From the NCBI GenBank assembly GCA_010093605.1, contig MU004183.1, forward strand, positions 434,001-498,000: a stretch of 64,000 nt of DNA, read 5' to 3'. The position numbers were made by a program, and so were the translations under genes. Below, in pieces: positions 136 to 34,194 of this stretch (the first letter of the stretch is position 1; the number at the start of each line of letters is the position of its first letter). Source of the DNA: Lophium mytilinum. Lineage: Eukaryota. The notes under the pieces were generated by a model, which saw nothing but the letters and a program-made list of their open reading frames with translations, did not search any database and had not been told where the DNA came from.

Positions 136-3100
136 ATGGACGCCCATTCAAGCCCGTCTAAGCGACAAGAGCTGTGTCACACTCTGCTCATAGAACTCCT
201 TGCGTTTGTCTATCGTTCCGACTTCCTGCAATGTCTACTAATACGTTAGCCTGTAGACATCAGTTCTGCTCACCTGTGCGATGGACCGAGACGCAGGACC
301 TGCTTCTGCACGACTTCAAGACCAAGAAGACCGTCGAAATCGGGCCGTCGGACACCCTTACAACGATGATGAAGAGAACTCATGATCTTACGTACCGACC
401 TTTCGATACCGCCAATTCTGTGTCCCGGAATTTTCTATCGCTCAAACGTAACAAGAAGGACGTCTGTTTTCAAAGGGAGAGAACGGCGAGTCCGGCGAAG
501 AAGGCGAAAGTGACCAGCACAAAGGCTGTAGTGTCACATCCTACCGTGGACCAGCCCACACCACCTATACCATCAACAGCGCCTGTAGCAGTGGCCGTTG
601 GTCCCATTGAAGATGCTCCGGTGTCTGCTGTAGATATCATCATAACGATCGTTGCGGTGGCCTTAAAGAAGAGCCCGAAAGATCTTGCTCTTGACAGCTC
701 TGTTAAGGTTCTTTCTGGAGGTAAGAGCTTGTACTGAGCGCCTACAATGACTTATTATAGAAATCCGTACACCTGTTTACCACTGCTTGGGGAGCTTCAC
801 GGTATTTTCAACGCTTCGAATACAAGAAAATACAGCAGATACACCTCCAATCTGTGTACACCATTTTGGCACTGTTTGGGGTACCCTCACAGGTTTACCA
901 GCAGTCCAGGATGCTATTTAATTTCCCTTAATTGGAGCGCTGAAAACATCATGAGGCTCTTCAAGCAGTGGTAAATAAGTTTACAGATATCTATAGCAAG
1001 GCACTGTACAAACTGTTTAACTAACTTCAAACAGGACGGTCTACCCTGCAAAATGAAATTACAGGCGACCTAGACACTGAGTTCGGGTCCGCACCTGATG
1101 GCGCAGAAGATGTTCCTCTAAAGGAGCTCGCCGCCATACTTCAGAAGTCTTTTACCGGGCAGCTAGGACGGCGTACGAAGTCCATGATTGACAAACTTTT
1201 CACCTCTAAGATGCCGGGTGGATTCAACTTAACCAAAGTGCGAAGCATGCTTGAACAAGACTACGGGTTTGGCGCAGGAAGACAGGACTCTATTCTCCTT
1301 TCCTCCCTTCAGGCTCCACCAGCAGTCCGATTTGACTCGGAAGATAAAGCCAGAGAATACTGGTCCAACACTGTTCAACTCTACATATCTGCTGCCGGTA
1401 TTCAAGTTCAAAAGACAACTACATCTTCCGGTGTGACTGGCGCTGCTATCAGCATCGATCCTAAGGCGCTGGAGGCACTGACAAAACGCAATGATAACTT
1501 CAATCGAGATATCTACGAAGCCTATGCTAGACATGTGGGCGATCAATCTGCGTCTAGTTCTGACGAGCTTGCGAAAATCCGGAACGACTTGAAAGACCTC
1601 CAAAGCGAACTTGATCTATGGAATCTGGAGCACGGCAATGAGTATGCGACTGGTATCAAGCCACTATTTGACCGTCGCAAGGCTCGCCAATACGACTCGT
1701 ACTGGAACTGGGCAGTGCAGGACCTCTTCCAAATCTACCACGGCATCCGTCAAGGCAGCCTCCATATTAACGATGAAGACCTGATCCCCCGCCGACAAGC
1801 TTTGCTCAATAAGTCATGCGCGCGTTTGATCTTCGCTCTCAATCATATGTTGGCTGAGATAAAGGCTGAAAAGTCACAGCCAATAGAAGTATCCAATTGG
1901 CTCGCGGAACTTCTCGTGGATTGCAAAAAGGCTCTCCACCGATCACCAGCTTTTGTTGCCTCCGCGAAGCTCACGAAACCGAGAACTACCATCGATGCCG
2001 ACGGAGTGATACAGTTCATCGAGGAGCCAGTTACGCATGTGCAAGCATTCGAGGAGCAAACCTTGAAAGCAGCCGTAGTCGCCAAAGACCCGAATGGAGT
2101 GGCCACCCATATCAGCATCAACATAAGCACCCAAAACCTGGATATGCCAGCATCAGATACCTCATCGGTTACTGAAGTACCCACTCCTGGCCTTCCCTGC
2201 AACTCCCTCCCGCAAATACAGAAGAAGGTTGGAGGGGCATGGAGGGACTCCGTGTCTTTAACAGATGAGTACGCCAATGGTCTTGGCCAGTCAACATCAA
2301 AGGGATTGGAATTCTCTGGCAAAAACATTCTCATTACGGGCGCCGGAAAGGACTCTATTGGTTCTAAAATCTTGCAAGGCCTTCTCTCTGGAGGTGCCAG
2401 AGTTGTAGTCACCACGAGCTCATACTCGAGAAAGACCACGACGTATTACCAAGACGTGTTCTCGAAATTTGGATCCAAAGGTTCTAGCCTGCTGGTCGTG
2501 CCGTTCAATCAAGGCAGCTTGCAGGACACGGAAGCTCTTATCGAATACATCTATAGTATCAACGACTCCGAATGGGATCTAGACCATGTTGTTCCGTTCG
2601 CAGCTATCTCGGAGATCTCTAACGGCGTTGAGCTTGGTTCGAAATCAGAATTGGCTCATAGAATGATGCTCACAAACACTTTGAGGCTACTCGGAGCGAT
2701 CAAGAAGGCTAAGGAGGCTCGCCGGATTGATACTAGACCTGCGCAAGTTATTCTTCCACTGTCGCCTAACCACGGCGTATTCGGAGGTGACGGGCTCTAC
2801 TCGGAATCGAAGCTTGGTCTCGAAGGCCTGCTGAACAAATGGCACACGGAAGATTGGTCTGACTATCTGTCTATTTGCGGTGCCATCATTGGGTGGACTC
2901 GTGGCACCAAACTCATGAACGACAACGACATCGTAGCGGAAGGTGTTGAAGGCCTAGGCGTAAAGACCTTCTCACAGGCCGAGATGGCTTTGTATATTCT
3001 GGGTTTGATGACTTCGCCGCTTCTCCACATTTGCCAGACTGAGCCGCTACTTGCGGATTTTAGCGGAGGCATGACCTCGTTTTCGAACCTCAAGGAAGAA

Positions 3101-5458
3101 GTCGCCATCATCCGCTCCGAAATCAAAGACATCAGCGCCAGCCGACGTAATATGGCCCGTGAACTCCAGGCTGAACATGGTGTCTCAACTTCGACAACCG
3201 GCCAATTTCCTGCTTTCACGCAGCGAGCTAACATCAAGTTCGACTTTCCCAAGCTTCCTGACTTCTCTTCAGAGGTTGAACAGCTCTCACAACTCGAAGG
3301 CATGATCGACCTCGACAAGGTCGTCGTCGTATGCGGCTACGGGGAAGTTGGGCCGCATGGCAGCTCCCGCACTCGATGGCAAATGGAAGCTCACGGGGAG
3401 CTTTCTCTGGAAGGACACATCGAAATGGCCTGGATGATGGGGCTAATCGAGTATCAAAGCGCCGAGGGCATACCGTATCGCGGATGGGTCGAGAAAGAAA
3501 GTCACCAGCCGATCACGGACCTTGATATTAAGAAGAAGTACGAGCGGCACATTCTGGAGCACAGCGGAATTCGATTTTTTGATGCTCGCTCGCTGGATGG
3601 CCCGGACCCGTCCGCTCGTCAGGTCCTTCACGAAATCGACCTGCAGGCAGATTTTGCGCCTTTCGAAGTTTCCAAGGACACAGCTAAAGACCTTATCAGA
3701 GAACACGGCGACAAGGTCACAATTACCGATGTTGAGGATCACTGCGTTGCAATTTTGAAGAAGGGCGCCCGTCTCATGGTTCCTAAGGCTTTAGTCTTCG
3801 ACCGCACCGTTGGAGGTCAGGTCCCGACAGGCTGGTCCGCCAGAACCTACGGTATTGCTGAGGATATCATCAACCAAGTTGATCCTGCAACACTGTATGC
3901 TTTGGTGTGCACCGCTGAGGCATTATTGTCTGCTGGCATTACCGACGCGTACGAATTCTACAAGTATATCCACGTTTCCCAGCTCGGTGTTGCCGTTGGA
4001 TCTGGTTATGGCGGAGCCGCATCGTTACAAGGTATCTACAAGGAGCGATTTCTTGATAGGCCGATTCAAAATGACGTGCTAGCTGAATCTTTCATCAATA
4101 CGGGTTCAGCTTGGATCAATATGCTTCTGCTCTCCTCTTCAGGGCCCAACATCACGCCTGTTGGCGCTTGTGCTACCGCATTGGAGTCGCTTGATGTGGG
4201 TTTCGAGCTCATTTCCAGCGGAAAAGCGAAAGCTGTGCTCGTTGGGGGCTACGACTACTTAGCCAAGGATGTTGCCTACGAGTTCGCCAACATGAAGGCA
4301 ACCATTAGTAGCGATGTTGACACAGCTCGCGGTAGAGATCCGCAGGAAATGTCTCGACCTGCTACTTCAACACGGGGCGGTTTCGTCGAGTCTGAAGGTT
4401 GCGGCATCCAGGTACTCACCACCGCAAAGCTCGCTCTCGAAATGGGTCTACCAATCCACGGTATAATGGCGATGACTCGGACTGCTAGCGACAAGGCCGG
4501 TAGATCACTGCCAGCCCCTGGCCACGGCATCATGACCGCTAGTGGTCAGTCCAAAGGTAGCGCCTTCGACTCACCCCTAATGAGCATTGCCTATCGCAAA
4601 CGCCATATCAACCTCCGCATGAACCAGATCAAAGCCACAGAAGACTCCGAACTCGCCTTCCTCGAAGAAGAGCTTGCCTCTTACAAGCCCAGCCAATCTG
4701 ATTTCGACTTGGACGAGTTCCGAAAGCATCGCATCGCCGCCATCCTCTCCGAGAGCCAAAGCCAGCGACAAGAAACCATGAATACCTACGGCAACAACTT
4801 TTGGAAACGCGACAGTCGTATCTCGCCAATGCGAGGCGCGCTCGCTACTTGGGGATTAACAATCGACGATCTTTCGGTAGCATCCTTCCATGGCACGTCG
4901 ACTGTGATGAACGAGCTCAACGAATGCACTGTCATCCAAGAGCAGATGACCCAGCTCGGTCGCACGCGCGGCAATCCTGTCCAAGCAGTCTTTCAGAAGC
5001 ATCTTACAGGGCACCCTAAGGGCGCTGCCGCGGCATGGATGCTGAATGGATGTCTACAAATCATGGACACAGGTCTCGTACCGGGCAACCGGAATGCAGA
5101 TAACATCGACGCAGAGCTTGAGAAGTTTGACCATATCGCTTTCCCAAGCGAAACGCTAAAGACGTCTACGGGAGTGAAGGCTTTCATCGTCAGCTCATTT
5201 GGGTTTGGGCAGAAGGGCGCGCAGACGATTGGGATTCATCCGAAATATCTATTTGCGGCGGCAGGGAAGGAGCAGTATGAGAGCTATCGTCTGAAGCTAG
5301 CTAAGAGGCAGAAGAAGGCGTATCAGCATTTCCAGAAGTCGATGATGGAGAATAGCTTGTTTAAGGCGAAGGATTTGCCGCCGTATGCGGCGGAGAAGGA
5401 GACGGAGTTTTTGACAAATTTGGACGCGAGGTTGCCTATGGATATGGAACTTGAGTAG
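136..5458 (+). CDS. Fatty acid synthase alpha subunit, secondary-metabolism type (ACP-KR-KS, no C-terminal PPTase)
   Basis: ATG at 136. Introns 204-256 and 721-1034 (GT..CTAAY..AG) restore FAS-alpha motifs ELCHTLLIELLA|HQFCSPVRWTETQD and the ACP serine motif GG|RSTLQNE. KR motifs ITGAGKDSIG and YSESKLG; KS motifs PVGACAT, SFHGTST, LTGHPKGAA, SFGFGQKG. Confidence 0.95.
745..1006. mobile_element. TA-flanked MITE (Tc1/mariner-like) in FAS intron 2
   Basis: 57-nt inverted arms at 745-801 and 950-1006 (37/46 identical over the inner part). Ends are TA|CAATG and CACTG|TA. A third, internal copy of the arm core lies at ~851-890. Removing the element plus one TA leaves a normal 50-nt intron. Confidence 0.8.
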
Positions 5459-6984
5459 GAGAAGATCGTTTGTATCTGTCTTGTCTGTATTTTATTTTAT
5501 GTTGAAAGAGTTGTCTTCCCTTTAAATCTTTCTACATGATGCGGAGCTGGGTTGAGGAGCGTGTGATCATCCCGCTCTGCTCTATAATAATATTATTCGG
5601 AATGACTATATTACTGGTTTCACTTGAAGCGACGTGCGCTATCTAACACGCTTTTCGAGCCTGATTTTGGTCCAATCGAGGACGGTCTAGCATCGTAGAC
5701 TGAGAAGGCCATTGAGGCTAGTTACCCACCCAAAGGGGCTGCAAGAGTTCGTGGATTGAGTACGCTTGGACACTTCTACTTAGCATTGGTGAATTCTTCT
5801 TGGCATCTTGAGCACCACATCACGTGCATCTCACGTACATTTCCTATACCGAGCCCTCCCATCTCCTTCCTCCGTACTATTCCGCCGTTGTCGGAATTGA
5901 AAGCCCGAACTGCTGCTAAAGATAGACCCATCCAGGCTCACGGTGCGGCGCAGTCCATTGTACCTCCATTTGCAGAAATACAACTGCGCAACCAATCACA
6001 CCTCTCCACGTTCTAGCGCGAGACATACCGGGGGCCTAATTACGCGTTTATCATGGATAGACGCGTATCGCTACACAGCTATACGCCGCGTTACTTCTCC
6101 AGGGTACCGCTGATAGTGAATTTCAGCAGGCGGCGTCGGGCCTGTAAACCGTTTCACAACGCAACAACGCACGCGACCCTCAATCTGAGACCTCGACGTA
6201 CCAGATTGGTAATCTTGGAACAACATGTGCCCTCCAGCGCGAGCTTTCCACCTCTCATCGTGCAAGCCAGCAAGAGCCAAGAGCGGTTCTGTTCCACACC
6301 AGCTAACTATTCTAATCAACGAAATTCGCTTTAAAATCTCACGTCTCAGCCATTCCAGCCCGCGCTTCGCACGCCCTGGGTATGCTTATCGGCTGCGGTG
6401 CACGCCTGGGACGCCTTAAAATACTCCGCTCTCTGACATTGCACTAGCCTTGTGCGATCGGCGCAGGGTAAGCAGCCCACGCGGTGAGGATTAAGCGTCT
6501 GATGGGCATGGGGGGCCTGGTTGAGCGTATGCAGAGCTAGGCAGGGGGGATCCACTGTGCGAGACCCTGTGTATTTTATGTTTCGTGCATGGTGGCTGCG
6601 TCGTGGCGGGGTAAGGCGTCCAGGGCTGAAGGGCCGGGGTTTATGCGAAGTGGTTGGGGGGCGGGAGGGTGGTTTGGGGTTATGGGGGTTTAGATGTAGG
6701 GTGTGCGGTGAGGGGAGCTAGCGAAGTAGTGCGGACAGTAGAGAGAGATGCGTTGAGTATTGGGGATGAGCGGAGGGTTTGAAGCATGGAAGTGGTTCAA
6801 GTTTGCGCATCGTGCATGAAGGAAATGGATTCATTGTCTTGCTAAGGTCGATGTATCACTGTTTTGGGCACTTTGAGGTATAAATATGATGTTGGACGAT
6901 AATTTATATATCTCTATTCTTGTAAAGTTCTTCGCCAGCGGCCGTAAGTTCTACTTCCCTGCCTCTTCGAGCGAGGCAGGGAAG

Positions 6985-7089
6985 TCAAAGGAGAGCTGCT
7001 TCGACGCCCTTGTGGAAGAGGTGGATGCTGCCCTTCTTCTCCAGCGCCGCGATGTCGAAGTTGTTGAGCACGCTCCAGAACTTGTTGAA
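6985..7089 (-). pseudogene. Fragment resembling a fungal eIF4E-family cap-binding protein
   Basis: Minus strand reads FNKFWSVLNNFDIAALEKKGSIHLFHKGVEAALL*, resembling the eIF4E FWSVxNN...HLFxKGVxPxWED segment, but it stops before PxWED. It is preceded by an intron-like CTGAC..CAG acceptor. Confidence 0.5.
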
Positions 7090-7509
7090 GGCTGGAGGGA
7101 AAGGATGCTAGTCAGTGTGCGTACAGATGTTCACCACGTCCTGAGGTGGCCCAGCAAGGTGTTAGGAGGCAATGTTAGAATGGCCTCCGGACTTCTGAAG
7201 AAGACATCACTGAGCAAATTAGTTGAAACTTACTCACGGCATGTGACATGGGAAAGTACAGAGTAGTAACGGTCAACATGATAGTATCTAACAAAAAGGG
7301 TACTCCATGTTAAGAAATCCATAAACGCCTGAAAGCCTGATCGATCATCATTTTCCCAATATATTTGCCGTGTCTAGCTGTAACATGCTTTCCGTAGATT
7401 CGTTTTACCCTCCCTTGAAAGACCCCATATACCGTTCGCTGTATGCCAGATAGAACATGAAATTCGTGGGCTATTCCGTTGCCAACTAAAAGAGTGACCC
7501 AGCCACTCT

Positions 7510-8695
7510 TCAAGCACGCTGGTGCTGCGCTCTCCAGCTTTCTCTAAACTGCTCGCCTTCAGACAACGCAATTTCTGACCCCAACTGGACATCTGATCCA
7601 TTGTTAGAGTGCATTGGCTTCATTCCCTTTGTGACAAGGCGGTCTCCCTTGCCAGCTGGGACCCATAGCTGACGGAAAACGCGCCCCGGGTGGAACCAGG
7701 TGATCAAAGCCACGGCGATTATGATCATGGGGCCTTCGAAGATCATGAAAGAGACTTCGCTGTTAGCGATTGCACTGTCAAAGCCGCCTGCAAGCTCGGC
7801 AACACGATAGATGCATCGAATGAAGATCAAGACAGTGGCAATGACGAGACCTGGAAGGAGACTGTTAGCTGACGGGATGGAAATTGCGTCGAGGGGGTTA
7901 CTTACTCAATTGGAATCCAGTAAAGATGCGAGAGTTGCGGAGAGTGTTGTAGAGAGGGGGCTGGCTGCGTCCAAGTGACCCCATAGCCTTTGCCTTCCGC
8001 ACTCGGATGGTAAAATCGAGCCAGAGAGCCATAAACAGAACCATAGAGATGACCTGGGACACGAGACCCGCAATCATGACGTTGGTCCCCTGCTGAGAGC
8101 CGGCATGGTCTTTAGCGGTCGAGGCGAGAGCACCTCCAACTGCTTGCAAGACCAGTGCAAAAAGATCGCAGCCAATGAATATTTTGGCGTATGTTCGGGG
8201 CTGGAGACGGGAGTTCTCTGGCCCGACGACGGTAATGATTCGTCCGAGGCAGAGATAGATGCATCCACTGAAGAAAGCGGGACCGATGGTGAGGCAGATG
8301 AGATAGCTATGGCACAATTAGAAATGAAGTTAAGATTGTGGTGATTTCTCCCACTATGTCACAGCTTACACTAAGAAATTGTTCATAATGAACGGATTGT
8401 TGTGGAGCATAATACGGCCAATATATCCGATGATCTCTAGCAGTAGACCCATAATCATCGACCCAAGAAATGTCCATGTCTTGTGCTTGATGCCGAAGAA
8501 CATCTGAATCCCCAGAAGCACAAAGAAGCAGGCCAAGTAAACGACGTTGCCTCCAAGATTGGGAAGGTAGGAGATGGTTGCCCACGAAATCGGACATTCT
8601 CCCAACTTGCAGTACTTCCGCTGCATGGCAATAAGGGTACTATTGGTAGTGGTGAGGTTGAGGTGGTTCGGGTCGACGCCATTTCTGTCGAGCAT
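7510..8695 (-). CDS. RTA1-like (lipid-translocating exporter family) membrane protein
   Basis: Three exons (ORFs 8366-8695, 7898-8317, 7510-7830) with RTA1 hallmarks LEIIGYIGR, IGPAFFSGCIYLCLGRI, FIGCDLFALVLQAVGG, IRCIYRVAELAGG and FMIFEG. Confidence 0.9.
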
Positions 8696-10511
8696 GATGA
8701 AGGTTGATGTCGAAGAGGCAAATTGAAGAAGAAGAAATAGATAAAGAAATAGATCCTAATTCGAATACTTCGGCTTCCGAGATGTGATGAAAGAGGAACG
8801 AGAGTTATTGAGAGTGAATGAAAATATGGAAACACAAAGACGCAATAAGCACACTTGATATATCTAAGACAGAATGCGGCGGGGTGGCCCTCTTTATGGA
8901 AAGGTCGCAAGCAGATTGGCGTCGCTGGGATGGAGAAGGCGTGCCGCACGGGGCTGTAGGATCCAAACTGGGAGCGGCGCAGCATGCAACCGCCAACCAA
9001 GGCGCCGAGAGAGCAGAAGTGGAGTTTCAGGAACACTGTGCTGCCGCGCTTACCACTCAAGGCGGTGGATTGGGAAGCACTATTCTCGTGGGCGGTGCAT
9101 CTAAACAGGCCCCTGCAAGAGCAAAGCATAGAAGACATTTTAGTGCTAACCCAGTACCGAGTAATAGCTACTTTGAGAACTTTCTAGGGTACCAGACGCC
9201 GTCTTCCAAGGTTTCAATCGAGGTGTTTGAAAGTTAGTTCTACCACATACTCTAACCAGACTTCTGGTCATCCTTCGACGGATTCCGGGCAGCAAGCGAA
9301 AGAGCTGATTTACCTCCTCATCTCATCCAATTGTGCGGTGGGCATAGTTGACCTCGAATGCCGTTTTCAAGCCGAGACATAACAAGGAGTTGTAGGATAA
9401 GGGCGGTGCGGCTGGCTCGAGCACGTCCGCTGCCAAGTGCCGTAGTGCAGATCCTTGGACTATCCCAGATGGGAATAGACTCGCGTAATTCTGAGACGGA
9501 AATCAAAAGTAATTAACATGGTTACAAACTCTGTGTGGCCGAAGCTTACCGCCTCTTCTCCCACAGCCCTCCCGCCCCTCGTCAGCACTATCACCCAGCA
9601 CCTACCGTTAGAGCTATCACCACCACTAACAAGTAATTGCCAGGTTACATCTGACACGCCCATGTTAAGCTTTCCCCGCACTTCCTGTGTCCAGCCGGAT
9701 TCATACTTGAGCAGAGATGCTCGAGTCTCCTTCACGCTGGTTTCAGGATCCACCGCGGCGTACGTGTCATTCCATCTCGAATGAACGTTACTGCATCAGG
9801 ATCAAAGATACACAGAGTTCTGCTTTGCTTCTCCCCTGCACCTGCAGAATATGACACGGGAAGAGCGAGGTTCTGTAGTCGCTCGTTGCTGTAAGATTAA
9901 GAATACGCTTCCAGCAGCCCTCAGCCCCTCACGCTTCCTTGGTTGGCTCCTGCAAGTGTTTTCAGCCTCACAAACAGCGCGTCTCCTTAGCGCAGTAATC
10001 CGTTTTTAGACTCACTCTATCGCCGCAACTTACCTCAGCCTCGATCGGTGTGCCAAAGGGCACCGGCGCGGAAGAGCAACGCTAACCACAGCCACCACCC
10101 GAGAACTCTACGGCCAACAGCCCTACGAAATGGCGCAAGGCTCTATTTCCGACGCATGCTACTGGCCGGTGCTTGTGTAGACCAAGTCTTAATGTCTCAC
10201 GTACCCTTTTTCGAATTCTAATCCTCTTGCTCACTTCACGATTTTCACCTTGCTCACAAGTTTCCTCTCTACAAACTCGGCTTTTGCCCCAATTGCTGTA
10301 TTAACCTAGATACCCTGCTTTTCACCTTTGCGCTTTAGCGCTCTTGATCTCATTCCACGGTTTTAAACTCTTCGAAGCAGCACCAACGACGAACTAAGCA
10401 AAGGTATAGTATTTATAAAGAATCCTTCGTTTGGAAATTTAACCTGCCAGCTCCACAGCTAGCAAAATAATCATTAGCTGTTCCAACTTCAGCACCTCCG
10501 AACTCACCAAA

Positions 10512-16500: not shown

Positions 16501-19500
16501 CCGCCGCTGCATTCATCGAGAATCCGGATTGGGTCCACCTTTTCCCAACCTCTGGAACCATCCGTCGGTTCTACAGAAGCGGAGATCTTGGCTTACTCAA
16601 TACCGATGGGAGTATCACTATCGTTGGCCGACGTGATACGCAAGTAAAGATTAATGGGCAGAGAGTTGAGCTTGACGAGATAATGCATCAGATACAACAG
16701 CTTTTACCAGAGGGGTACCAAACTGTCGTTGACGCGATCTCCGTTGAGCAACACACCAAGAGCAAGACTATCATTGCTTACGTCTGCTCCCCGGAATTTA
16801 GCCACAACGACCAAGCAAGCCTAGTAATCTCGGATGACTTGAGAAAGCTATTCAAGAGCTTGCAAGGGGCGTTGGCGAAAGTATTACCATTCTACATGAT
16901 ACCTTCGCTCTTCGTGCCTATTTCCAAGATTCCGTCCACTCAATCGGGTAAGATGGACCGTACGGCACTGAGACAGATTGTCTCTGGTTTCTCGAAGGCC
17001 CAAATTTCCCACTACATGCTCCGAGATACCTCAAAGTCTCTACCGAGGACGGGGATGGAACGACTTTTCCAGAGCCTGTTCAGCGAGACTCTCAGCATTG
17101 AAGCCGAAACAATCAGCAGGGACGACAACTTCTTTGGCCTGGGAGGCGACAGTGTTGGAGCAATGAAAATGGTGGCAGCGGCACGAAAGCACAACACCAT
17201 CATTCGAGTGTCAGATATATTCAAGCATCCAAATCTTGACGATATGGCCACCGTAGCCAAGATGGCCGACGACCAAAAGTCAACCGAGCAGATTGAACCT
17301 TTCAGTCTGATTCCCCTCAACGGTTCACCACTCGAAAAAGTCATCGCAGATGCAGCGGCACACTGCAACCTTCCAACCGCAGATATTGAAGACATATACC
17401 CAACCTCCGCACTCCAAGAAGGTCTCATGGCCTTAGGAATGAGGAAAACAGGAGCTTACATTGCGCAAAAGACTTTCAAACTTCCATCGCAGAATTTCGA
17501 TTTATCTCGCTTCTACTCTGCGTGGTTCACAGTCGTTGAACAAGAAGCTATCTTGCGAAGCCGTATCATCCACTTGCCACTGTCGGGAAGCCTCCAAGTC
17601 GTCCACAGACGAGCACTTGAATGGCAAGAAGCAGATGACCTGGAGAGTTACCTTACTAGCGATATGCTTTCTCCTTTCCAATACGGGGATCCATTAATGC
17701 GAGTGGCCATTGTCAAGGAGTCAAAGTCCGCAGTCTACTTCGTCTGGACAGCTCACCACGCGATCTACGATGGATGGACCATTTCTCTACTGTTTGAGAA
17801 AGTTGCTCAAGCCTACCGAGGAGACCTTGTAGCAGACTCTGTACCGTTCAAAGCGTTCATTAATCGCCTCGGCGAGGTGTCCAATGCCGCAAACATAGAC
17901 TTTTGGAAAGATGAACTCAAATCCCAAGGAAGCTTCCCCACCAGCTTTCCCATCGTTGGGCACGGATATACCGCAGGTCCAAAGAAAACTATTACTCATC
18001 ATGCTACAGCACCGCGCATCACTTCCAACATTCTACCTTCCACTATCAAAAAAGCTGCATGGGCGCTGACACTCGCCACTTACGCGGATTCGGAGTCTAT
18101 CGTTTTCGCTTCAACCGTCTCCGGGCGGAATATTCCAATTTCCGGAATCGACTCAATGATGGGTCCCACCATCACAACAGTCCCAGTGAGTGTTTTGTCG
18201 CCAAAACCAGGCACAACCATTGCCCAATTCTTGGATGCTGTTCAAATCCAATCAATCAATTGTACGTAAGCTCCCAGCACAGATGAAAAGTCTTCCAGCT
18301 TTTGCGGTCGTGTGTACACCCGTCTGCCACTGCTTGGAGTGCCTCAACAGGTTTTCAGACAGTACAAAGCTGAGAGTAATCCTCTCATTTGTATTTGTAA
18401 AAATGCATTGAAGCACCACAAACAGCGGCAGACAGGTGTATAAGATTCAGAATGCGGTTGAGTGTGCTACCTTTTTTATGCCCCACAGGGCTTTGAAGAC
18501 TCGAGGGCGATCTGGTCCTGAAATATTTGCTAACTTTACTGCCACCTTTAGCGATGGAATTCGAGCACTTCGGTCTGCAAAAGATTGGCGAAGTCAGCAC
18601 CGAGGCTCGCGCTGCCATTGACAGCATAACGAATCTCTTTGTATTGCAGCCGGCTGGCGAAGACAACGACTCTTTTCTCGGCATGGATCCTCTTCCAAGG
18701 CCGGACACAAACTTTGACACTTATCCGCTCGTGGTTCTATGTAACTTGGGCAACAATGGAGACTTCAGCGTCGAAGCAATGTTTGACGAGGAAATTATTC
18801 CTACAGATCGGATGACACGCATGCTCCATCAATTCGAGCATTTTGTCCAGGAACTTTCCACAGATACCCATAAGTCTATCGAAGAGATAGGCCTCAACCC
18901 ACACGATCTCAAGGCCATTACAGAATGGAATGCTGAGCTTCCCGCGAGCATCGATGCCCGAATTCCGGACCTTGTACTCAAGAATGTGGAAACAAGACCC
19001 GATGCTGAGGCAATATCCGCATGGGATGGCTCCGTCACTTATAGGCAGCTCGACATCGTCTCTGCTAAACTCGCAAGCCATCTCATTTCTCTTGGCATTG
19101 GCCCAGAAATCAAAGTTGGGCTTTGCTTCGACAAGTCCATGTGGAATATAATCTCCATGTTTGCAGTCATGAGAATCGGTGGTGTCTGCGTGCAGCTCCT
19201 GCCCAGTTACCCGATGCCAAGAATGCTGAGTATCCTTGATGATATCGAGGCGTCAGTTGTGCTAGTGTCTCCTCAACATGCTGCTCTTTTCGATGGCATC
19301 GTTCCAAACGTTGTATGTATTGAGTCTTCGTTTGTTGATTCTCTGGTGCAGAAAGACTTTGAAATCCCTCAGTACGGGCCCGAAAACGCCGCATTCATCG
19401 TCTTCACCTCAGGCAGCACGGGAAAGCCTAAGGGCGTAATCATCGAGCACCGCGGATTTACTACAATGGCCCACTATCAGCTCCCTCAGATCCTTCTCAA

Positions 19501-22500
19501 TCAGGACTCTCGGGTTCTTCAATTCGCAACCCACACATTCGATATTTGCTTGTTCGAGAGCTTTGCACCTCTGGTGACTGGCGCACGCGTCTGTGTCCCA
19601 TCTGAATACGACCGACTGAACAGCCTGGTTAGCGCCATCAACAGTTTGAGAGTGGATTGGATTATCATGGTGTCAACAGTTGCCGATACCTTCCATCCCG
19701 ACGAGGTACCAGGGCTCAAATCAATGGTTCTCGGAGGTGAACCACTTCGTGCTGATATCCATGACCGATGGGCTAACCGAGTCTGCCTCTTCAACGACTA
19801 TGGCCCTGCTGAGTGCTCTATTTTGGCGGTGATGACTCGATCATTCGCTGATACTCCTCCCTCGATGATAGGGAAGGGTCATGGGTGCAGGACATGGGTT
19901 ACCGACAAGGTAGACTCCGACCGTCTCTTGCCAGTCGGCTGCATCGGCGAGCTCCTTGTTGAGGGTCCTCTTCTTGCGAGAGGCTATCTCAAGAATCCAG
20001 AAAAGACTGCGGAATCCTACATCACTGCTCCTGGCTGGGCGTCCTCTGTTCAACCTCCGCCTTCGAGGCTCTACAAGACTGGAGATCTGGTCCGGTACAC
20101 GAAGGATGGCAATATGATCTGTTTAGGTCGTAAGGACACACAGATCAAAATCCGGGGACTTCGTGTTGAGCTTGGAGAAATAGAGCACCATATCAAAACC
20201 AGCTCATTTGGAGCTCGACATCTTGCTGTTGAAAAGATCCTGATTGGTGGAGACATCGAAAAGGCGGCTTTGGCGGCATTTCTCGTGCCTTCAGAGAATG
20301 AAGACAGCCAGAACGAAGTCCTTCCTTTATCCGACGCACTAAACGCCAAGTTCTTGCAGCTAAGAGATCATGTCGGACAGTCGTTACAGAGTTATATGGT
20401 TCCGTCCCTGTTTATCCCGCTGAGGAGAATGCCGGAGACACAGACTGGCAAGATCGACCGCAATGCATTGAAGAGGATTGGAGCCGGCTTGACACTAGGC
20501 GAATTTGAGGCTTACTCTTTAGCAGACGCTGAGGATTCGGCTCCACGACGCGCTCCATCAACGGCCATCGAGAAGATACTACAGTCGATTTGGGCACAGC
20601 TCCTGAATATTGACCCTCTATCCATCAGCGCAGACGACAGCTTTTTCAAGAAGGGGGGAGATAGTATTAAAGCTATGAGGCTAACCTCCATGGCCAGATC
20701 GGCAGGTTACAAGCTAATTGTTGCGGATATCTTCAAGAGCCCGGTATTGGCTGATATGGCGGCGGCAGCAGTTCCCGAAAATGTCTCGGTGATACCATCC
20801 GCAATCCCACCGTTCAAAGTCGCTTCAGGAGGGGATATCACAAACCTGATCGAGGAATCAGCTGCCCAATGTGGAGTCGAAAAAAGCGCTATCGAAGACA
20901 TATATCCATGCACCCCTCTCCAGGCCGGTCTGATGGAGCTTGCGACGCAACAAGGGACCGCTTACACAGCTCAAAGAGTCTTCCGCTTCCCCGCCGATAT
21001 CGACATAACTCGTTTCAAAGAGGCTTGGACCCAGCTTGTTGCCCTCAATCCCATCTTGAGGACACGAATTATTTTGTCCGGGTCTGGGGCAATGCAAGTT
21101 GTTATCAAAGAAGGCATTTCCTGGCAAACCGAAACCTCTGTTTCCGAATATACCGGAAATGACAAACTAGTCGAAATCCACTATGGTAGTCCCCTTGCAC
21201 GATATGCGCTGGATTCCGACCACAGGCACTTCATCTGGACAGTGCATCATGCTCTTTATGACGGGCATAGCGCGAATCTGGTCATGGAACAGCTAGAAGC
21301 CCTCTACGAGGGGTCTCAGACTGCACCCGCAACGGGCTACAATCACTTCATCAAGCTGATCGAAGACGTCGATCCAATAGCCTCCAAGACATTCTGGAGT
21401 CAGCAGCTGAACCAAGGCATACCTCAGAGCTTTCCTACACTTCCTTCCGCCACCTACCAACCGTCGCCTGATCGCGAAGTCACGAAATCCATCCACATTG
21501 TGTCCAGCGGAACCGACTTCATGCTCTCAACGATTCTTCGAGCTGCTTGGGCCATTGTTACGGGTCGATACATGAGCTCCAACGAGGTCGCATTCGCTGC
21601 CACTTTGTCTGGGCGGAACGCGCCCATCCCAGGCATCGAAACCATTGTAGGCCCAACGATTACTACTGTTCCTATCCAGATCCAGATGAAATCAGATGAG
21701 CCAGTGGCCCGGTTCTTGGGAAGAGTGCACCAACAACAAGCCGATATGATTCCTTTCGAGCACGCAGGCCTCCAAAATATCTACGCCATGGCAGGTGACA
21801 GGCAGAATCTTAAGAATCTCTTCGTCATTCAGCAGCCGCTCACGGATCTGACGAATGGGCCCGAGGGCAGTCTTCTCGATGAGATCCTCGATAAGGATCT
21901 TCTCCGGGGATTCCATACATTTGCCGTTGTTGTAGAGTGTATGATCATGAGTGAGAATAAAGTCGATATAGAGCTCCAGTTCGATCACAAAGCTTTGCCG
22001 GAAGCATCGGCTCGAATGGTTCTCGACCAATTTGAGCATGTTGTTCACCAATTGACCGAGGCGCCTTCATCTAGTCCCCTTGGAGACATCGACTTAGTTA
22101 CGCCGGCACACTTCCAACAAATGATTGAATGGAACAACATGGTTGATGTCCAGAACGTAGAGGACTGTATTCACAACATCTTCCGAGAGCAAGTCAAACT
22201 CCAGCCAGACGCAGAAGCAGTCTCGTCGTGGGATGGCTCCCTTACTTACCAGCAGTTGGATCACTTGTCTGAGAAGCTGGCCGCCTACTTAGTTGAAAGA
22301 GGTGTCAAACCAGAATACCTCGTGCCCATGTGCTTCGACAAATCTCTTTACGCAGTGGTCTCCATGATGGCCGTGCTCAAAGCTGGGGGAGCTTGTGCTC
22401 ATCTAGGAAGAACTCAGCCTATCGCGCGTATGACCCAGATTATCCAGGAAACCGGCGCCAGCATTGTTCTCACGGATAGACTCCATGGTGACCAATTTGT

Positions 22501-25500
22501 GGGCATTGCAGATTCTATTGTAATCGAGGAAGAGCTCTTCAGCACCCTCTCCTCGAATGCGCAACTCCCTCAAGTTTCTTCTTCAAATCCGGCATTTGTC
22601 CTATTCACCTCTGGCTCTACTGGAAAGCCCAAGGGTATCGTGGTCGAGCACGGTTCGCTCTGTACCAGCTCTAAGGCCCACGGTACGAACAGAAAAGTGG
22701 GCCCTCATACCCGTCTCCTTCAGGTAAGAATTCTTCGAGAGTCTTCACAGCTAAGACTAACATAAATCAGTTCGCCGCCTACACTTTTGACGTGGCTACT
22801 GCGGATGTATTTACGACTCTCCAGCGAGGAGGTTGCATCTGCATACCCTCAGAAGAAGAGCGTGTCAACGACCTACCTGGAGCCATCAACCGGACGAAGG
22901 CCAATTATGGGTTCCTGACTCCAACTGTCGCTGGAATGCTGGATCCGAAGAGCGTTCCAACCTTGAAGACGCTCATTTTGGGGGGTGAACTACTCACTCA
23001 AGATAACGTCAAGACGTGGGCTCCTCTGGTTCGTCTGATAATTAGTTACGGGATGGCAGAGTGCAGCATCCACTGCATGGATGCGGTTCCGTTGACATTG
23101 GAGAGCGATCCCGCAAATCTCGGCCGCCCTTCTGGATGTCTGATGTGGATAGTCGATCCGGAAGATCATGATAAGCTGGCGCCTATCGGAGCTGTGGGAG
23201 AACTGATGATCGAAGGTAGAATGGTCTCTCGCGGTTACCTCAACGACACGGAAAAGACAGATGCAGCCTTCATCATTGAACCTACTTGGGCGCAAGGCAG
23301 CGGCTCACCACGCCGCATGTACAAAACTGGCGATCTCGTCAGGTACAGCGCTCAAGGCGAAATTTGCTATGTCAGTCGAAAGGACTTCCAGGTTAAGCAC
23401 CATGGCCAAAGGATTGAGCTCAGTGAGATTGAGCACCATCTCGCCACCGACATCCGTGTGAAGCACACTGTATCACTGCTGCCAAAAGCAGGCTATCTCA
23501 AGAAGAAGCTCATAACTGTCCTTTCGTTTGAGTCGCTCGCTTTGCCACTCAATAAGGACTCTCAACTTGCGTTGATTACCGGACTGGATAAAGGCATGGC
23601 CGAAGTCCAGATCGCCTCAGTCCGCAACAACCTCGCGACAATCGTCCCGGAGTATATGGTCCCAGCATTATTCATTGTTGTGCGCGCCCTCCCTCTAACT
23701 CCCAACGGAAAGCTTGATAGAGTCACCACCCTCAAGTGGATTGAAGATATGGAAGAGCATATGTACGAATTGATCGCTGGCGGAAACGAAGACGAGGATG
23801 GATGGGCTACTGCAGCTACCGAGCAGCAAAAACGGCTGCAGGAGATCCTAGTTGAGGTCCTTGGCTTGCCAGGAATCAACATGAACCGGTCTTTTCTGGA
23901 TCTGGGCGGCGACAGCATTACTGCTATGCAACTCCGAGCGAAGGGCCAGGCGCAAGGCATTTCCCTCAGTGTGAGAGACATCATCACGTGCGAGAGCATT
24001 TCCCATCTCGCCATGCAGGCAAAGTTTCTTGAAGAGGGTGTGAACGAATTTGAAGAGGTGGTTGGGAAGCCGTTCCCATTGACTAACTGGCAGAAAGCGT
24101 GTCTTGATTCTACGGTACCGCAGACTCAGACAGTCGTACTGCGACTAGCCGAGTCTACTACGGTACCAAAGCTTGTCCGAGCGATCGAGGCGCTTATCCA
24201 GCACCATTCTATGCTTCGGGCGCGACTTACACGAAATGCCGAAGGAAGCTGGAAACAAGTTGTTACCAAAGAGCTCACCGGATCCTACGCTTTCGAAGCT
24301 CACACTTTGTCCACGAAGGCAGAGCTTGACTCTTATTTACCCAAAATGAGAGATATATTGGACATCGAAACCGGACCTCTCTTCGTAGTACATCTTTTCG
24401 ACGTAGTGGAGTCAGCCCAGGAGCAACAGCTGATAGCGATTACGATTCATAACTCGGTCGCAGATGCGACTTCGATGCGCATCATTGTAGAGGATCTCCA
24501 AGAACTATTGCAAGGTGGCATGATTTCTTCCAAAAAGGCGGCATCATTCCAAGCTTGGCTCAACTCTGCTCACGAGCTACCGCCGTATGAGTTACCCCAG
24601 GATACCATTAGTCCTCAAGCGGGATGTCACGTTCCGCCCTCTTCAACTCATGAAGTGGGTGAAACCACTTGTGTTCCACCCTTCCAGCTGTGCCAGGAGC
24701 CCTCTAACGAAGAAGAGGCCGTCGACAAGGAAGAGATTCAGTTCAACATGTCCGCCTGGGGTGTCTCGGACTTTGAGAAGTCACTCACCCTTACGGCGGA
24801 CACCTCTTCTCTGCTACTGGGCGTCAGCAACGATGCTCTTTCTACACAACCTAAGGACATCATCATTGCTTCCCTAACCCACGCCTTAGCTGCAAGCAAG
24901 CTACCCACAGTCATTTCCATCAAAGAAGATGGCCGGAACTCCAGGACAGTGGGACAGTTCAATCGCATTCGTGAGTTCGACGAAAGCGGTAGCCAGGACC
25001 TTGTCCAACTCCTCAGTAAAGCTAAGGATTTTCGCGTCCAGAATGAGGCCAATCTGCGCCTGATGCAATCTTCACCAAGCTTCACTGGAGTACTCTTCGA
25101 ATACTTGGACACCACTTTTAGCCTCGACAATGGAATTGTCCTAGATTGCGTTGAAGTCTCCCCACAGGAGTCCCAAGTGCCTTCCGCAGTACTCGATATC
25201 TCCGCCAAAGTTTCCAATGGCAGCATTACGATCAAAATACGGGTGCACAGCGTCAGCCTCGCTATTCAAGACTCGATCTGTGGCCTTGTCGATTATTTGT
25301 CGCTCTCCATGCCAGTCTTTGCAAAGAAGCTTGCCACAATGTCTCGCATGGCGACCTTGACCGACTATCCTCTCCTCAAGATGGAGTACGGCCACCTCCC
25401 TGAATTAGAAAACGTAATCCGCAATGTGGGGTTAAGTTTCGATCGTATCGAAGCTATTGTACCTTGCACACCACTCCAGACCCGAATGCTAGTCAGTCAG

Positions 25501-26802
25501 CAACGAACCCCAGGGACTTACCAGTCAGATACCGCGCACATAGTCTCCGCCCCAGGCGATAGTGAAGTCGACATTGCAAAGCTTAGCCTGGCATGGGAGA
25601 AGATCGTAGCGCGCCACGAAGCCCTCCGCACCGTGTTCGTTCCGTCCGTGACTCGACCGGGCGAATATGACCAAGTCGTTTTGAAAGACTATAAGACTGC
25701 TATAGGCGTTCTCACCGAGTGCGATCAATCAACAATCCTTGAAACCGTTCGGACCCATACCTCACTCACGAGCGCCTACACCCCGCAAGCCGCACTTTCG
25801 ATTTTCCAGTGTGGTTCAGCACCGTCTGGGGTGGCCCAGGAAGCCGGGCCTGGACAAGACGTATACTGCAAACTCGAGATTAGCCATGCGCTTCAAGATG
25901 GCATGTCAACGAGGAAGATTTATCAAGACCTCGTCCTCGCGTATCAGGACCTCCTTGCAGCCGGACCCGCGCCCAGCTTCCGGCGGTACGTTGAATGGAT
26001 AGAGAAACAGGACTTAGCGCCATCGATCGACTTCTGGACAAGATACTTAGGAGAAAGCAAAGCATGCCATATGCCTCGCCTCGAACATGCAAAGGAAGAG
26101 GCCAAGGGCCAGCACCAACTCATTGGATTCCCGGAACTTGGTGTCTCGGCCGCCGACATCACCAATATGTGTAGAACGAACAACCTCACGCCTGCGACGC
26201 TCTTCCAAGCCGCATGGGTCCTCGTTCTGCGCCAATTCACCAAGCAGGACGACGTTCTATTCGGCTATATCACGGCAGGGCGGGACATCGACATCCCCGG
26301 CGTCGAAGACATCGTTGGCCCAATGATCAACATGCTCGCGTGCGGCATGCACGTCGATAGCAACATGACGAGCGGAGAGTTGCTGAAAGCGACGCACGGG
26401 AGCTGGCTGCAGACGCTAGAGCACCAGCACGGACTGGTGGGTGCGGCCGCGGCAGTGGAGAAGAGGGACGGACGGCTACCGTGGAACTCTGTCTTGAGCA
26501 TCGAGTATTCTGGGTCGGACGATGCCGGTGCGGATGCGTACTTCCCCAGTAGCGGCAGCACGGCTGGCTCGTCGCCGCTGAACTTCGAGACTGTCTATGG
26601 AACTAGATCACCTGAGTTCGATGTTGTGCTCGGCGTGTTGCTGGGTGAGAGGAGTGTGGAGGTGCAGTTGGGGTATTGGGATGGGGTGATTGATAAAGCG
26701 GTGATGGATGAAGTGCTTGTCATGTACAAGAGGGTATTGGAGGAGTGGGTTCAAGCTGGTGATCTGGGGGACCGCGTTGGGGAGATGAAGGTCATTGTTT
26801 AG
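10512..26802 (+). CDS. Four-module nonribosomal peptide synthetase (A-T-E-C-A-T-C-A-T-C-A-T-E*-CT), ~5,246 aa
   Basis: Introns 11153-11203, 15042-15203, 18262-18551 and 22724-22770 join five ORFs in frame. Four A domains (FTSG[S/T]TGxPKG), four T domains (GGDS), E domain HHVLIDLVSW, C domains NHAIIDG, HHAIYDG and HHALYDG, a degenerate E-like HNSVAD, and terminal C SHALQDG. Confidence 0.95.
15061..15161. mobile_element. 101-bp TA-flanked palindromic MITE in NRPS intron 2
   Basis: 48-nt imperfect inverted arms (15061-15108 and 15114-15161) around a 5-nt loop, with TA at 15059-60 and 15162-63. Arms match those of the FAS-intron element (CAGTGCCT...AGAAATCxGTACA...ACCACTG). Removal leaves a 59-nt intron. 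Confidence 0.8.
18311..18479. mobile_element. Related MITE-family copy in NRPS intron 3
   Basis: Inverted arms TACACCCGTCTGCCACTGCTTGGAGTGCCTCAA / TTGAAGCACCACAAACAGCGGCAGACAGGTGTA. Collinear with the copy at 40016-40215 and with the inner part of the FAS element. Exact ends are uncertain. Confidence 0.7.
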
Positions 26803-32334: not shown

Positions 32335-34194
32335 GTTGCCCAACGGGAATATCTCAGGAATGCCGTCGAGGCCGTGGAAGGGAGCGGATTGGCGATGGGG
32401 GAGAGGTAATTAGGAGGCGGGACCTCATAAAAGGATAGTAGCCACGGGAGAAGGTGTGAATGCAGACAAGGGCCACCGGGGGGTCTCTGGTGGTTCTTCG
32501 AGCGGGGAGTCGGGTCGCGTCACAGGGACATGATAATGGATGAAATCTAAGACAGCTGGCCCAGCCGGAGTCGCCTTATCGCACGGTGGGAGGTTGCGGG
32601 CGGGCGGACTGGTGGTTTTGGGGGGGTGGATGCGGCGTGGAGGCGGCCGGCGCTGGGTGATGGAGGTCAGTCGGGGGGGTGGAGGAGTGAAGAAGGTGGT
32701 GGGCGTGGATGATGCCGTCAGTCTGCTTTGGGTTGACGTTGGATGAAGGAGCCACGGTTGTTTGCTTTGTGAGAGGGCGGGGAAGGAAGAGCCCGGCGAT
32801 GTGAGCAGCCAGATTATCTACACCTCCGACATCATCGTGGACATGGCCGCTTGAATCGCTCCAAAGCCTGCTGCTAGACTGCACTGCTGCAGGTGCTCCA
32901 GCGCTACGAATTACCAGGCTACTCATACTATTACCGCCCGCGCCAGCCAGGGCTTGCTTCGTGCCTTGCCTTAGGTCTAGATAAAGCTGCCGCCGAAACC
33001 GCCCAGCATGGGGCGCATCAAACCCCACGCCCGCCTGCAACCAAGCTTTCACCACCAGATCTAGGAGCCGGGCACCGTACGAGTCAGCTGTCCCTAGCCC
33101 GATACAAACCTCATCATCTGCTCAATTCTCTCATAGAATATTGTCTACTTTCTGCGGTTGTTATCTCTCCTTCACTAGTCTACACTCCACCGAGGTCACG
33201 CCGAGAAATGGGCATCAGGACATCAGGTCAGGGCATTAGGCCGCTATTTTAACCTATGGCGAGGCTGCCCGATTCTGTTTGGGCCTTCTTGGTTCAGGAC
33301 GACGTGGCCGAATGTGAACGGGGAATCCCTACAAGTTTCAAGATTCGGTCACTTCTAAGGACTTTATGATTCGAAAGGGATAGATTTCTGAAGTTTGATC
33401 CCGACTGAGAGCAAACTGCCCCTCCTATCATTTGCAACTTGAGTCTGCGTCTAATTTACACAAGATGATATCGATTTTCTTGCTTCTTAGTTGCCGTCTC
33501 ATGCACCCTCGTAAAACAGCGGTCGGGCCATAGCGTGCATCGCAGTGTAGCAAAGGCTAGGTTGTGATTTTGGAGAATGGGCCAGTGTTCTCCTGGCAAT
33601 TTAAGACAGCCTGCAGGAGGCATCAGAAGGAAGCCTGCATCATAGCTTCAGGGACTTTACAGGTTATCTCAACTTTTCTCGATATCATGAAGAGCTTCTG
33701 AGACTGCATAATAGGAGCAAAAGAAGACGGGCGTGTCTAGAGCAACGACAAACAGTACAACAGCAGATAGCTGTGTGTAGGCATCTAGTTAGACAGTCTA
33801 AAATTCGCAATTACCACTGACCGATATCTATGCTTTGATATAGTCAACTCTCCAAGGCCGAAATGGCTGCTTTCAGCACCGTGCAGCCGTATGAGGTCTC
33901 CCCTATCTCCAACAGTATCACCAAGGAACGGCAAAAGCTGAGTAAATCAGGTGTGCAAAAAGCAACACTCTTTTCCATTGCAAACAGCCAACATATAAAT
34001 ACCAAAATAATTTGGAAAGCGACATCAATCGTCAGGTCGTCCATCACACACATCTGTACTGAAATCTACGCCTACCGTTCCCACTTCTCCCCCAGCCGGA
34101 CCTCCGCGTCACCTCAATGCTCACTTCACCCAGCGCAAAACGTCGCCTTCAAACGCACTCCCACAAACCTTACGACCCATACGAACCCGCAAAT

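Follow-up and report, generated by a model that had tools for sequence, protein, structure and literature searches.

Cyclic tetrapeptides that carry an amino acid supplied by a fatty acid synthase (FAS), such as HC-toxin, apicidin and the trapoxin-like compounds, are classic natural inhibitors of histone deacetylases, and to our knowledge only a few gene clusters for such compounds are known. The stretch of DNA analyzed here, 64,000 nucleotides of contig MU004183.1 (positions 434,001–498,000) and referred to as the window, comes from Lophium mytilinum, a member of the Mytilinidiales within the Dothideomycetes. Positions 136–26802 of the window contain three intact genes, which encode an FAS alpha subunit, an RTA1-like membrane protein and a nonribosomal peptide synthetase (NRPS) of four modules. 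Taken together, the evidence leans, though not strongly, toward the window holding one end of an L. mytilinum secondary-metabolite gene cluster that belongs to an uncharacterized family common to several Pleosporales. This orphan family would be conserved and expressed, would direct the synthesis of a D-L-L-L tetrapeptide, probably cyclic and containing an FAS-derived amino acid, and would descend from an ancestor with two active epimerases.

The HC-toxin synthetase HTS1 is a protein of 5218 residues with one epimerization domain, encoded by a gene without introns, and it is accompanied by TOXC (FAS beta subunit), TOXH (FAS alpha subunit) and TOXF (aminotransferase). The apicidin synthetase APS1 is 44% identical to HTS1 (both as given in the available part of PMC3729494). 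The APF cluster for apicidin F contains, in the available part of PMC4109984, genes for an aminotransferase, an FAS alpha subunit, cytochrome P450 monooxygenases (P450s), a methyltransferase, a bANK regulator and a transporter of the major facilitator superfamily (MFS). An earlier note on the Lophium locus, made from the sequence alone, had named it a candidate for the HC-toxin/apicidin class. The layout is indeed analogous, but the substrate codes, a second epimerase-type domain and four introns set the Lophium synthetase apart.

Domain organization of the synthetase

The NRPS gene is located on the plus strand at 10512–26802 and encodes 5246 amino acids in five exons (10512–11152, 11204–15041, 15204–18261, 18552–22723 and 22771–26802). 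The four introns, at 11153–11203 (51 nt), 15042–15203 (162 nt), 18262–18551 (290 nt) and 22724–22770 (47 nt), all have GT..AG borders. The start and stop are fixed because five full-length orthologs align with the protein end to end, their residue 1 corresponding to Met24 of the Lophium protein and the alignment continuing from there to the end.

Pfam recognizes four AMP-binding, four PP-binding and six condensation-type regions, and motif alignment gives the order A1-T1-E1-C2-A2-T2-C3-A3-T3-C4-A4-T4-E*-C, where A, T, E and C stand for adenylation, thiolation (carrier), epimerization and condensation domains and E* is an epimerase-like domain without the catalytic motifs. Four GGDS carrier motifs are present. 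The earlier note had recognized the FAS alpha, RTA1 and tetramodular NRPS genes at these positions, and Pfam matches together with open spliced frames bear it out for all three. Of the layout it gave for the NRPS, the A-T-E start and the four modules stand, while E* and the four introns had been overlooked.

Module 1 (10530–13883) is made of A1 (10530–12218, interrupted by intron 1), T1 (12261–12473) and E1 (12474–13883). E1 is intact, with HHVLID for the HHxxxD motif, EGHGRE, and TVGWFTT containing GWFT, and these motifs agree with the predicted epimerization of residue 1. E1 is followed by C2 (NHAIIDG, interrupted by intron 2), A2 and T2 at 13884–17285, by C3 (HHAIYDG, interrupted by intron 3), A3 and T3 at 17298–20800, and by C4 (HHALYDG), A4 (interrupted by intron 4) and T4 at 20801–24039. 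A4 has unusual A5 and A8 motifs; this is not decay, because they are kept in the orthologs. E* occupies 24040–25482, and the terminal C domain (SHALQDG), presumed to act in release or cyclization, occupies 25483–26799; all these domains are on the plus strand.

Introns 1 and 4 interrupt A1 and A4 at matching positions, immediately ahead of the YTFD core motif. T4 is most like T1 among the internal domains, and the T4-E*-C segment as a whole is most similar to T1-E1-C2. With matching introns and matching segments, modules 1 and 4 appear to stem from one A-T-E-C unit that was duplicated long ago.

A1 starts at residue 7 of the protein, and neither a starter C domain, a T0 domain nor a C or T remnant is present in the 1.8 kb examined upstream of the gene; the flanks hold no remnant of an NRPS domain. 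The synthetase thus begins with an A domain and lacks a starter C domain, as had been claimed. This start bears on whether the cluster could make a lipopeptide, with the FAS product attached as an acyl chain at the N-terminus or on a side chain instead of entering as an amino acid. Such a product has a precedent in the Pleosporales, where the pleosporacin cluster combines FAS alpha and beta subunits with an acyl-AMP ligase that loads onto T0 (available part of PMC12177691), and the polar pocket of A2 makes an acylatable side chain conceivable. In Lophium, however, the protein offers no domain for lipoinitiation ahead of A1, the Pfam scan of window open reading frames (ORFs) found no acyl-AMP ligase or acyltransferase gene, and the E domain of module 1 is of a kind that works on the thioester of an amino acid or a peptide. 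A lipopeptide product is therefore considered very unlikely.

The E* and terminal condensation domains

E* has IHNSVAD in place of HHxxxD, and its EGHGRE and GWFT motifs are degenerate. It is homologous to E1 (25% over 467 residues, E-value 5e-34) and not to C2–C4 (E-value 0.006 or worse), and its matches in the PDB, few in number and limited to the N-terminal third, are E domains. HHxxxD is kept in E* in none of 27 clade sequences, comprising 26 fragments and the Lophium protein, and most of them read HPxxAD. Judged by these motifs, E* is catalytically dead. It is also the least conserved domain, showing 40–44% identity with about 60 gapped positions against the close orthologs, compared with 58–81% for the A, T, E1 and C2–C4 domains and 50–53% for the terminal C domain. 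Its low conservation, combined with its persistence in frame across orders, would fit a retained structural role.

The nearest internal relative of the terminal C domain is C2 (E-value 7.5e-54), with much weaker matches to C3 (1e-16) and C4 (4e-19). In the PDB it best matches the C domains of SrfA, TycB, bacitracin synthetase and PvdL (E-values 1e-19 to 1e-21), which we take to be of the type that joins a D-configured donor to an L-configured acceptor (DCL). By sequence the nearest relatives of the domain thus appear to be C domains placed after an E domain. Its active-site motif begins with SH in 26 of the 27 clade sequences and with NH in the remaining one, P0008; SHALQDG is found exactly in 19 of the 27, and SHT(V/I/M)HDG in a seven-member subgroup. 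The final domain had been described as CT-type. The NRPS does end in a C domain, but that domain is nearer to C2 and to bacterial internal C domains than to the CT domain of TqaA.

More distant relatives give an indication of how this arrangement arose. P0285, P0308, P0312 and P0353 have the same domain order, A-T-E-C-A-T-C-A-T-C-A-T-E-C, at 33–49% identity over the full length, and the A1 codes of the first three are similar to that of Lophium (P0353 was outside this comparison). They differ in that the E domain after T4 keeps HHxxxD, EGHGRE and GWFT, which the Lophium clade has lost. Among eight full-length NRPSs, the E domain after T4 is live in five (P0285, P0308, P0312, P0273 and P0353) and dead in three (Lophium, P0296 and P0346), while E1 is live in all except P0312. 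On these counts the ancestor would have had two live epimerases, the second of which was lost in the clade of Lophium and the Pleosporales. Epimerase decay has occurred more than once in the wider group: P0312 combines a dead E1 with a live post-T4 E domain, and in P0346 the post-T4 E domain is dead, with the motif HFLVMD.

A more far-reaching proposal, which is tentative and rather unlikely, is that the combination of a private FAS and a four-module NRPS had an independent origin in this family. The two-epimerase ancestor would have placed D residues at positions 1 and 4, the dead E* would now serve as a scaffold or docking element before a C domain that expects a D donor, and the products, cyclic tetrapeptides with a fatty amino acid, would form a new compound class. 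Under this proposal the domains could be reconciled if residue 4 arrived in D or achiral form; it could, for instance, be an amino acid derived from the FAS and formed by a fold-type-IV aminotransferase. As a functional comparison for E*, glycopeptide synthetases have an X domain that is likewise inactive. Whatever its origin, a conserved dead E domain before a C domain of the post-E type is a natural case for studying the role of non-catalytic C/E-type domains in fungal megasynthetases, as well as how NRPS stereochemistry changes in evolution.

The FAS alpha gene, its pairing with the synthetase and the neighboring genes

The FAS alpha gene is located on the plus strand at 136–5458 and encodes a protein of 1651 residues with the arrangement ACP-KR-KS, as established from Pfam, a match at NCBI and RNA-contig joints. 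Its three exons (136–203, 257–720 and 1035–5458) are separated by introns of 53 nt (204–256) and 314 nt (721–1034), and RNA contigs join 203 to 257 and 718–720 to 1033–1035. Because of these joints the start codon is assigned to the ATG at 136, in agreement with the start proposed earlier, and the N-terminus presumably reads like a usual FAS2 start. The large exon (1025–5455) is 100% identical to the NCBI L. mytilinum protein P0121, the model of which starts at 366 and thus has a shorter N-terminus than the transcript-supported one.

Pfam identifies Fas_alpha_ACP (8e-48), FAS_I_H (1e-52) and both the N- and C-terminal ketoacyl-synt domains. The catalytic residues are retained, namely the ACP serine in GGRSTLQNE and Cys1164, His1404 and His1445 of the KS domain. 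The C-terminus falls about 160 residues short of the end of primary FAS2 proteins, and the phosphopantetheinyl transferase (PPT) domain is missing, as it is in all eight secondary-type FAS alpha proteins aligned, P0121 included. Among the 120 best matches, the nearest relatives are proteins of about 1600 residues from other Dothideomycetes (67–84% identity), and primary FAS2 proteins follow at 48–57%. On these sequence features the gene is classed as the secondary-metabolism form of a fungal type I FAS alpha subunit. A metagenome scan with the N-terminal 500 residues returned a single locus (L001) with only 27% identity.

Relatives of the NRPS were collected in several ways. The first search, limited to proteins below 5000 residues, gave many colinear fragments, and 26 of them, when checked, were 46–68% identical to the Lophium protein. 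Further matches came from an exhaustive search of representatives and from a word-index search with residues 4300–5168 of P0296 as query; as the former favors large NRPSs through summed domain scores, 129 new sequences were re-ranked by local BLAST. The five full-length orthologs are P0400 from Aaosphaeria arxii (64.9% identity to the Lophium NRPS), P0402 from Paraphoma chrysanthemicola (63.6%), P0405 from Setomelanomma holmii (63.6%), P0409 from a JGI record (65.3%) and P0415 from Dendryphion nanum (64.5%). P0296 (50.0%) and P0285 (48.7%) come next, followed by P0308 from Apiospora marii (42.1%), P0312 from Conoideocrella luteorostrata (38.2%), P0346 from Colletotrichum jinshuiense (35.3%) and P0353 from Aspergillus egyptiacus (33.0%).

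For 10 of 35 relatives of the FAS alpha subunit (P0122–P0156), the longest contig is exactly equal in size to that of an NRPS ortholog. Five of these shared sizes belong to Aaosphaeria (475924 bp), Paraphoma (1781809 bp), Setomelanomma (207458 bp), the JGI record (68505 bp) and Dendryphion (1860979 bp), and the other five are 341453, 38520, 1420678, 55330 and 168886 bp. Three of the contigs are shorter than 70 kb (38.5, 55 and 68.5 kb). The remaining 25 relatives are uninformative, the comparison having been with the best NRPS matches. Agreement in size to the base pair is hard to obtain by chance, and the pairing of FAS and NRPS appears to be conserved.

Evidence for expression comes from X1, the only public run that contains the stretch, a run of one study with contigs labelled 'RNA?'; none of the runs listed for the stretch is recorded as RNA. 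The run is taken as RNA-derived because its contigs skip five introns at GT..AG joints; these are exactly NRPS introns 1–3, the introns covered by the RNA comparison, and both FAS introns. The FAS alpha and NRPS genes are transcribed in the same sample, and the co-expression check proposed for the pair thus gave, in this one run, spliced transcripts of both; contig depth in X1 cannot be used to rank genes. One RNA contig jumps back from 20000 to 15871 (15871–15911) and has five mismatches close to its end; rather than a rearrangement, this is most likely the end of the contig aligned to a paralogous module.

Both the pairing and the transcripts bear on the view that the FAS alpha gene is part of a separate cluster further upstream, for example one with a polyketide synthase, and that the NRPS makes an ordinary tetrapeptide alone. 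The alpha subunit is the only one in view and its gene lies right at the window's border, its transcript contig extends 322 nt past the window start, no tailoring genes occur among the scanned window ORFs, and no A-domain code is like the deep-pocket code of HTS1 and APS1. The size matches, with contigs as short as 38.5–68.5 kb in three cases and NRPS identities of 46–65%, and the transcription of both genes in one sample nevertheless speak for a pairing of the two, and it is very unlikely that the FAS gene is part of a separate cluster.

The RTA1-like gene lies between the two large genes on the minus strand, at 7510–8695, with exons 8695–8370, 8306–7906 and 7850–7510. The family profile PF04479 is found on three minus-strand ORFs (1e-38, 5e-21 and 7e-6) covering profile positions 1–29, 31–134 and 144–207 of 208, and GT..AG junctions read from the sequence join the exons into an intact frame of 355 residues with about seven hydrophobic segments. 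The profile and the restored frame identify the product as a member of the RTA1-like family of lipid-translocating exporters. Run X1 is uninformative for this gene, with a depth of about 1.2 and no joints listed at its introns, and likewise for the stretches 6004–6670 and 8672–10005, which have no cover.

In region 6950–7175, next to this gene, RNA-contig depth reaches 248, compared with 5–20 over the cluster genes, and many loose contig ends occur. The region contains a minus-strand ORF of 40 residues (6985–7107) with a weak eIF4E-like Pfam match (E-value 0.021, below the cut-off), and appears to be a fragment similar to a gene that is strongly expressed from another place in the genome.

The Pfam scan covered 47 window ORFs (14 + 33), comprising every ORF of 150 or more residues and the majority of the 92 that reach 120 residues; the 33 of the downstream set span 27.4–64 kb. 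ORFs at 27–45 kb have no Pfam match, and beyond 45 kb the scan finds a ubiquitin hydrolase, tubulin cofactor C, an aldo-keto reductase, RNase T2, a DEAD helicase and a rhomboid protein. Since the downstream ORFs are housekeeping genes or have no Pfam match, the boundary of the cluster on this side is placed at the NRPS stop, and any further cluster genes must be upstream of base 1.

Two features of the downstream region stand apart from the cluster. A long serine-rich ORF on the minus strand (29672–32409) has a Cys-rich motif starting with CPICF and no Pfam match; it resembles what we take to be SIP5-type zinc-finger proteins, and is probably a housekeeping gene outside the cluster. The G+C content, about 0.50–0.55 elsewhere in the window, peaks at 0.64 at 54001–56000, which coincides with a minus-strand ORF of 555 residues (54026–55693) that holds the aldo-keto reductase domain.

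Substrate codes, proposed pathway and comparison with known systems

The pocket residues of the four A domains were read by anchoring on the FDxS, GGE, NxYGPTE and GK motifs, from which established rules locate the specificity-determining positions. The same procedure applied to the Ala domain of HTS1 gives DLLFGISVL, close to the classical Ala code. The Lophium codes of nine residues are DVLFAGGVA for A1, DVQDNGLVN for A2, DIFIVGDIL for A3 and DVAFIGSIH for A4. Asp235 and the A10 Lys517 are present in all four domains, and because of this all four substrates should be alpha-amino acids. The pocket of A2 is polar, with Gln239, Asp278, Asn299 and Asn331, and its code presumably resembles the bacterial Gln code, which is a lead only. 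The roomiest pockets are those of A1 (Ala299, Gly301, Gly322 and Ala331) and A4 (Ala239, Gly301 and Ser322). In the five orthologs that align end to end (63.6–65.3% identity), the A1, A2 and A4 codes are identical to those of Lophium, and A3 has one difference, or two in P0405. Judged by these codes, Lophium and the five ortholog hosts probably make the same peptide.

Reference codes were read by eye from domains in supplement 2 of PMC3630128, as far as it is available, for A1–A3 of HTS1 (DIAVITVLI, DAGGCAMVA and DLLFGISVL) and A1–A2 of APS1 (DVVALVVLI and DAGGCSMVA). None of the five matches any of the four Lophium codes, and the Lophium A-domain motifs have no match in the available part of the A-domain data set of that paper. 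HTS1 Q01886_2 and APS1 D2IKP5_2 have nearly the same code, DAGGC[A/S]MVA, yet they are labelled Ala and Ile in the data set (PMC3630128, available part). These labels of the second A domains may deserve a recheck, the 2-amino-oxo-decanoic acids Aeo and Aoda being the residue type common to both products.

In the proposed pathway, the FAS alpha subunit, which has no PPT domain, would work with a beta subunit and a trans-acting phosphopantetheinyl transferase, both encoded outside the window, to produce a fatty acid. An oxidase and an aminotransferase, likewise outside the window, may then convert it to an alpha-amino fatty acid, by analogy with TOXC, TOXH and TOXF of HC-toxin, APF4 and APF5 of apicidin F and the atn genes of aspercryptin. 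Of the four alpha-amino acids that the NRPS is predicted to load, the first would be epimerized by E1; C2, predicted to accept a D donor, C3 and C4 would join the residues, and at the terminal C domain the tetrapeptide would be set free, most likely cyclized head to tail in the process. The predicted stereochemistry is D-L-L-L because E*, which follows T4, appears catalytically dead. The RTA1-like protein could carry the lipophilic product out of the cell or shield the fungus that makes it, and a member of its family, AcrD, confers self-resistance according to the available part of PMC11791885. What we infer is that an amino acid derived from the FAS enters the peptide, as well as the cyclization, the identity of the product and the role of RTA1. 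For the predicted entry of the fatty chain as an amino acid and not as an N-acyl group, the conserved Asp235 and Lys517 and the missing starter C domain, T0 domain and ligase add support.

Several observations weigh against this pathway. The Gly239/Gly278 deep-pocket code that A2 of HTS1 shares with A2 of APS1 occurs in none of the four Lophium A domains, for which reason the module that takes the fatty amino acid, if any does, is left unassigned. Among the 47 scanned window ORFs no gene was found for an aminotransferase, a P450 or other oxidase, an FAS beta subunit, a transporter or a regulator, which agrees with the earlier statement that aminotransferase, P450 and regulator genes are outside the window. 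The linkage of FAS and NRPS genes in the relatives was judged by equal size of the longest contigs, a proxy and hence indirect, and the evidence for expression comes from a single run whose RNA nature is deduced from spliced contigs. The CT domain of TqaA, a fungal cyclizing domain of solved structure, matches the terminal C domain with an E-value of only 3e-10, and cyclization is to that extent an assumption. Finally, a terminal C domain that by its sequence would expect a D donor is an oddity behind a dead E domain.

The HC-toxin locus TOX2 of Cochliobolus carbonum is similar to the Lophium cluster in having, as published in part, a four-module NRPS of about 5200 residues with an A-T-E start and a C domain at its end, together with a clustered FAS alpha gene. 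In Lophium the RTA1 gene adjoins the NRPS gene in place of the MFS pump reported for TOX2, and the terminal C domain is closest to post-E C domains. The apicidin and apicidin F clusters of Fusarium share the E domain for residue 1 and an FAS alpha gene (APS5/APF5) without a clustered FAS beta gene in their available descriptions, and APF5, at 4995 bp, is similar in size. GWFT in Lophium E1 is the motif given for HTS1 and Apf1 (available part of PMC4109984). The APS1 A1 and A2 codes differ from those of Lophium, and the aminotransferase, P450s, methyltransferase, bANK regulator and MFS transporter of the published APF cluster are not among the scanned window ORFs.

The likeness raises the question of whether the locus is a true member of this group, with an ortholog of HTS1 and APS1 that makes an HDAC-inhibiting cyclic tetrapeptide containing an Aeo/Aoda-type 2-amino-oxo-decanoic acid. 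The four modules, the A-T-E start, the C end and the adjoining FAS alpha gene are all in keeping with membership, as are the lengths of the two synthetases (5246 residues, compared with the published 5218 for HTS1). Apicidin-type tetrapeptides have one D residue, which the predicted D-L-L-L configuration would fit. Against membership stand the complete mismatch of the five reference codes and the second, dead E-like domain and four introns of the Lophium gene, whereas the published HTS1 has a single E domain and an intron-free gene, and AjHTS1 likewise has one E domain. Four A1/A2 motifs from HTS1 and APS1 were compared with 512 fetched NRPS and FAS alpha relatives, of which 510 contain none of them; the two exceptions, P0396 and P0313, are NRPSs of 6.5–7 thousand residues that match FDASIGD, the sole motif found. 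The names TOXH and APS5 are missing from the 120 best FAS alpha matches, whereas primary FAS2 proteins are among them.

The promoter motifs and the downstream genes are no closer to those of the known loci. Tox-box matches in the window are at chance level (four, with 2.7 expected), only one of them being in the cluster, and the same holds for the Api-box (one match, with 1.8 expected), which is absent from the cluster promoters. Pfam finds no TOXA-, TOXE-, TOXF- or TOXG-like gene among the ORFs of the 37 kb downstream of the NRPS, where no bANK regulator of the TOXE/APS2 kind, no MFS pump of the TOXA/APS11 kind and no TOXF/APS4-type or branched-chain aminotransferase gene occurs either. True membership in the HC-toxin/apicidin group is thus considered unlikely. 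A candidate for a published HTS1-like gene among the relatives, P0028 from Exserohilum turcicum, was rejected since the members of its cluster are 6205–6206 residues long, too long for four modules.

Two further systems couple an FAS to an NRPS. The product of AtnA, the six-module NRPS of the aspercryptin pathway in Aspergillus nidulans, is linear. In its atn cluster the FAS genes atnF and atnM and aminotransferases feed alpha-amino fatty acids to the synthetase (available part of PMC12918583), which confirms that this cluster has FAS genes, as stated in the earlier note. The ple cluster for pleosporacin, from a Pleosporales species, contains an FAS alpha subunit of 1665 residues and an FAS beta subunit with the NRPS. 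It differs in its hexamodular NRPS, N-terminal T0 and lipoinitiation by an acyl-AMP ligase, none of which is present in the Lophium window (available part of PMC12177691).

The relation to the HTS1/APS1 systems is thus only partly supported. The Lophium family is analogous, not demonstrably orthologous, to them, and of the features compared it departs in its A-domain codes and in having more than one E-type domain. This makes the locus a tractable target for a new lipophilic tetrapeptide. What it shares with the known clusters is the logic of an FAS joined to a four-module NRPS, here found in at least six named Dothideomycetes with different substrate codes and a different domain layout.

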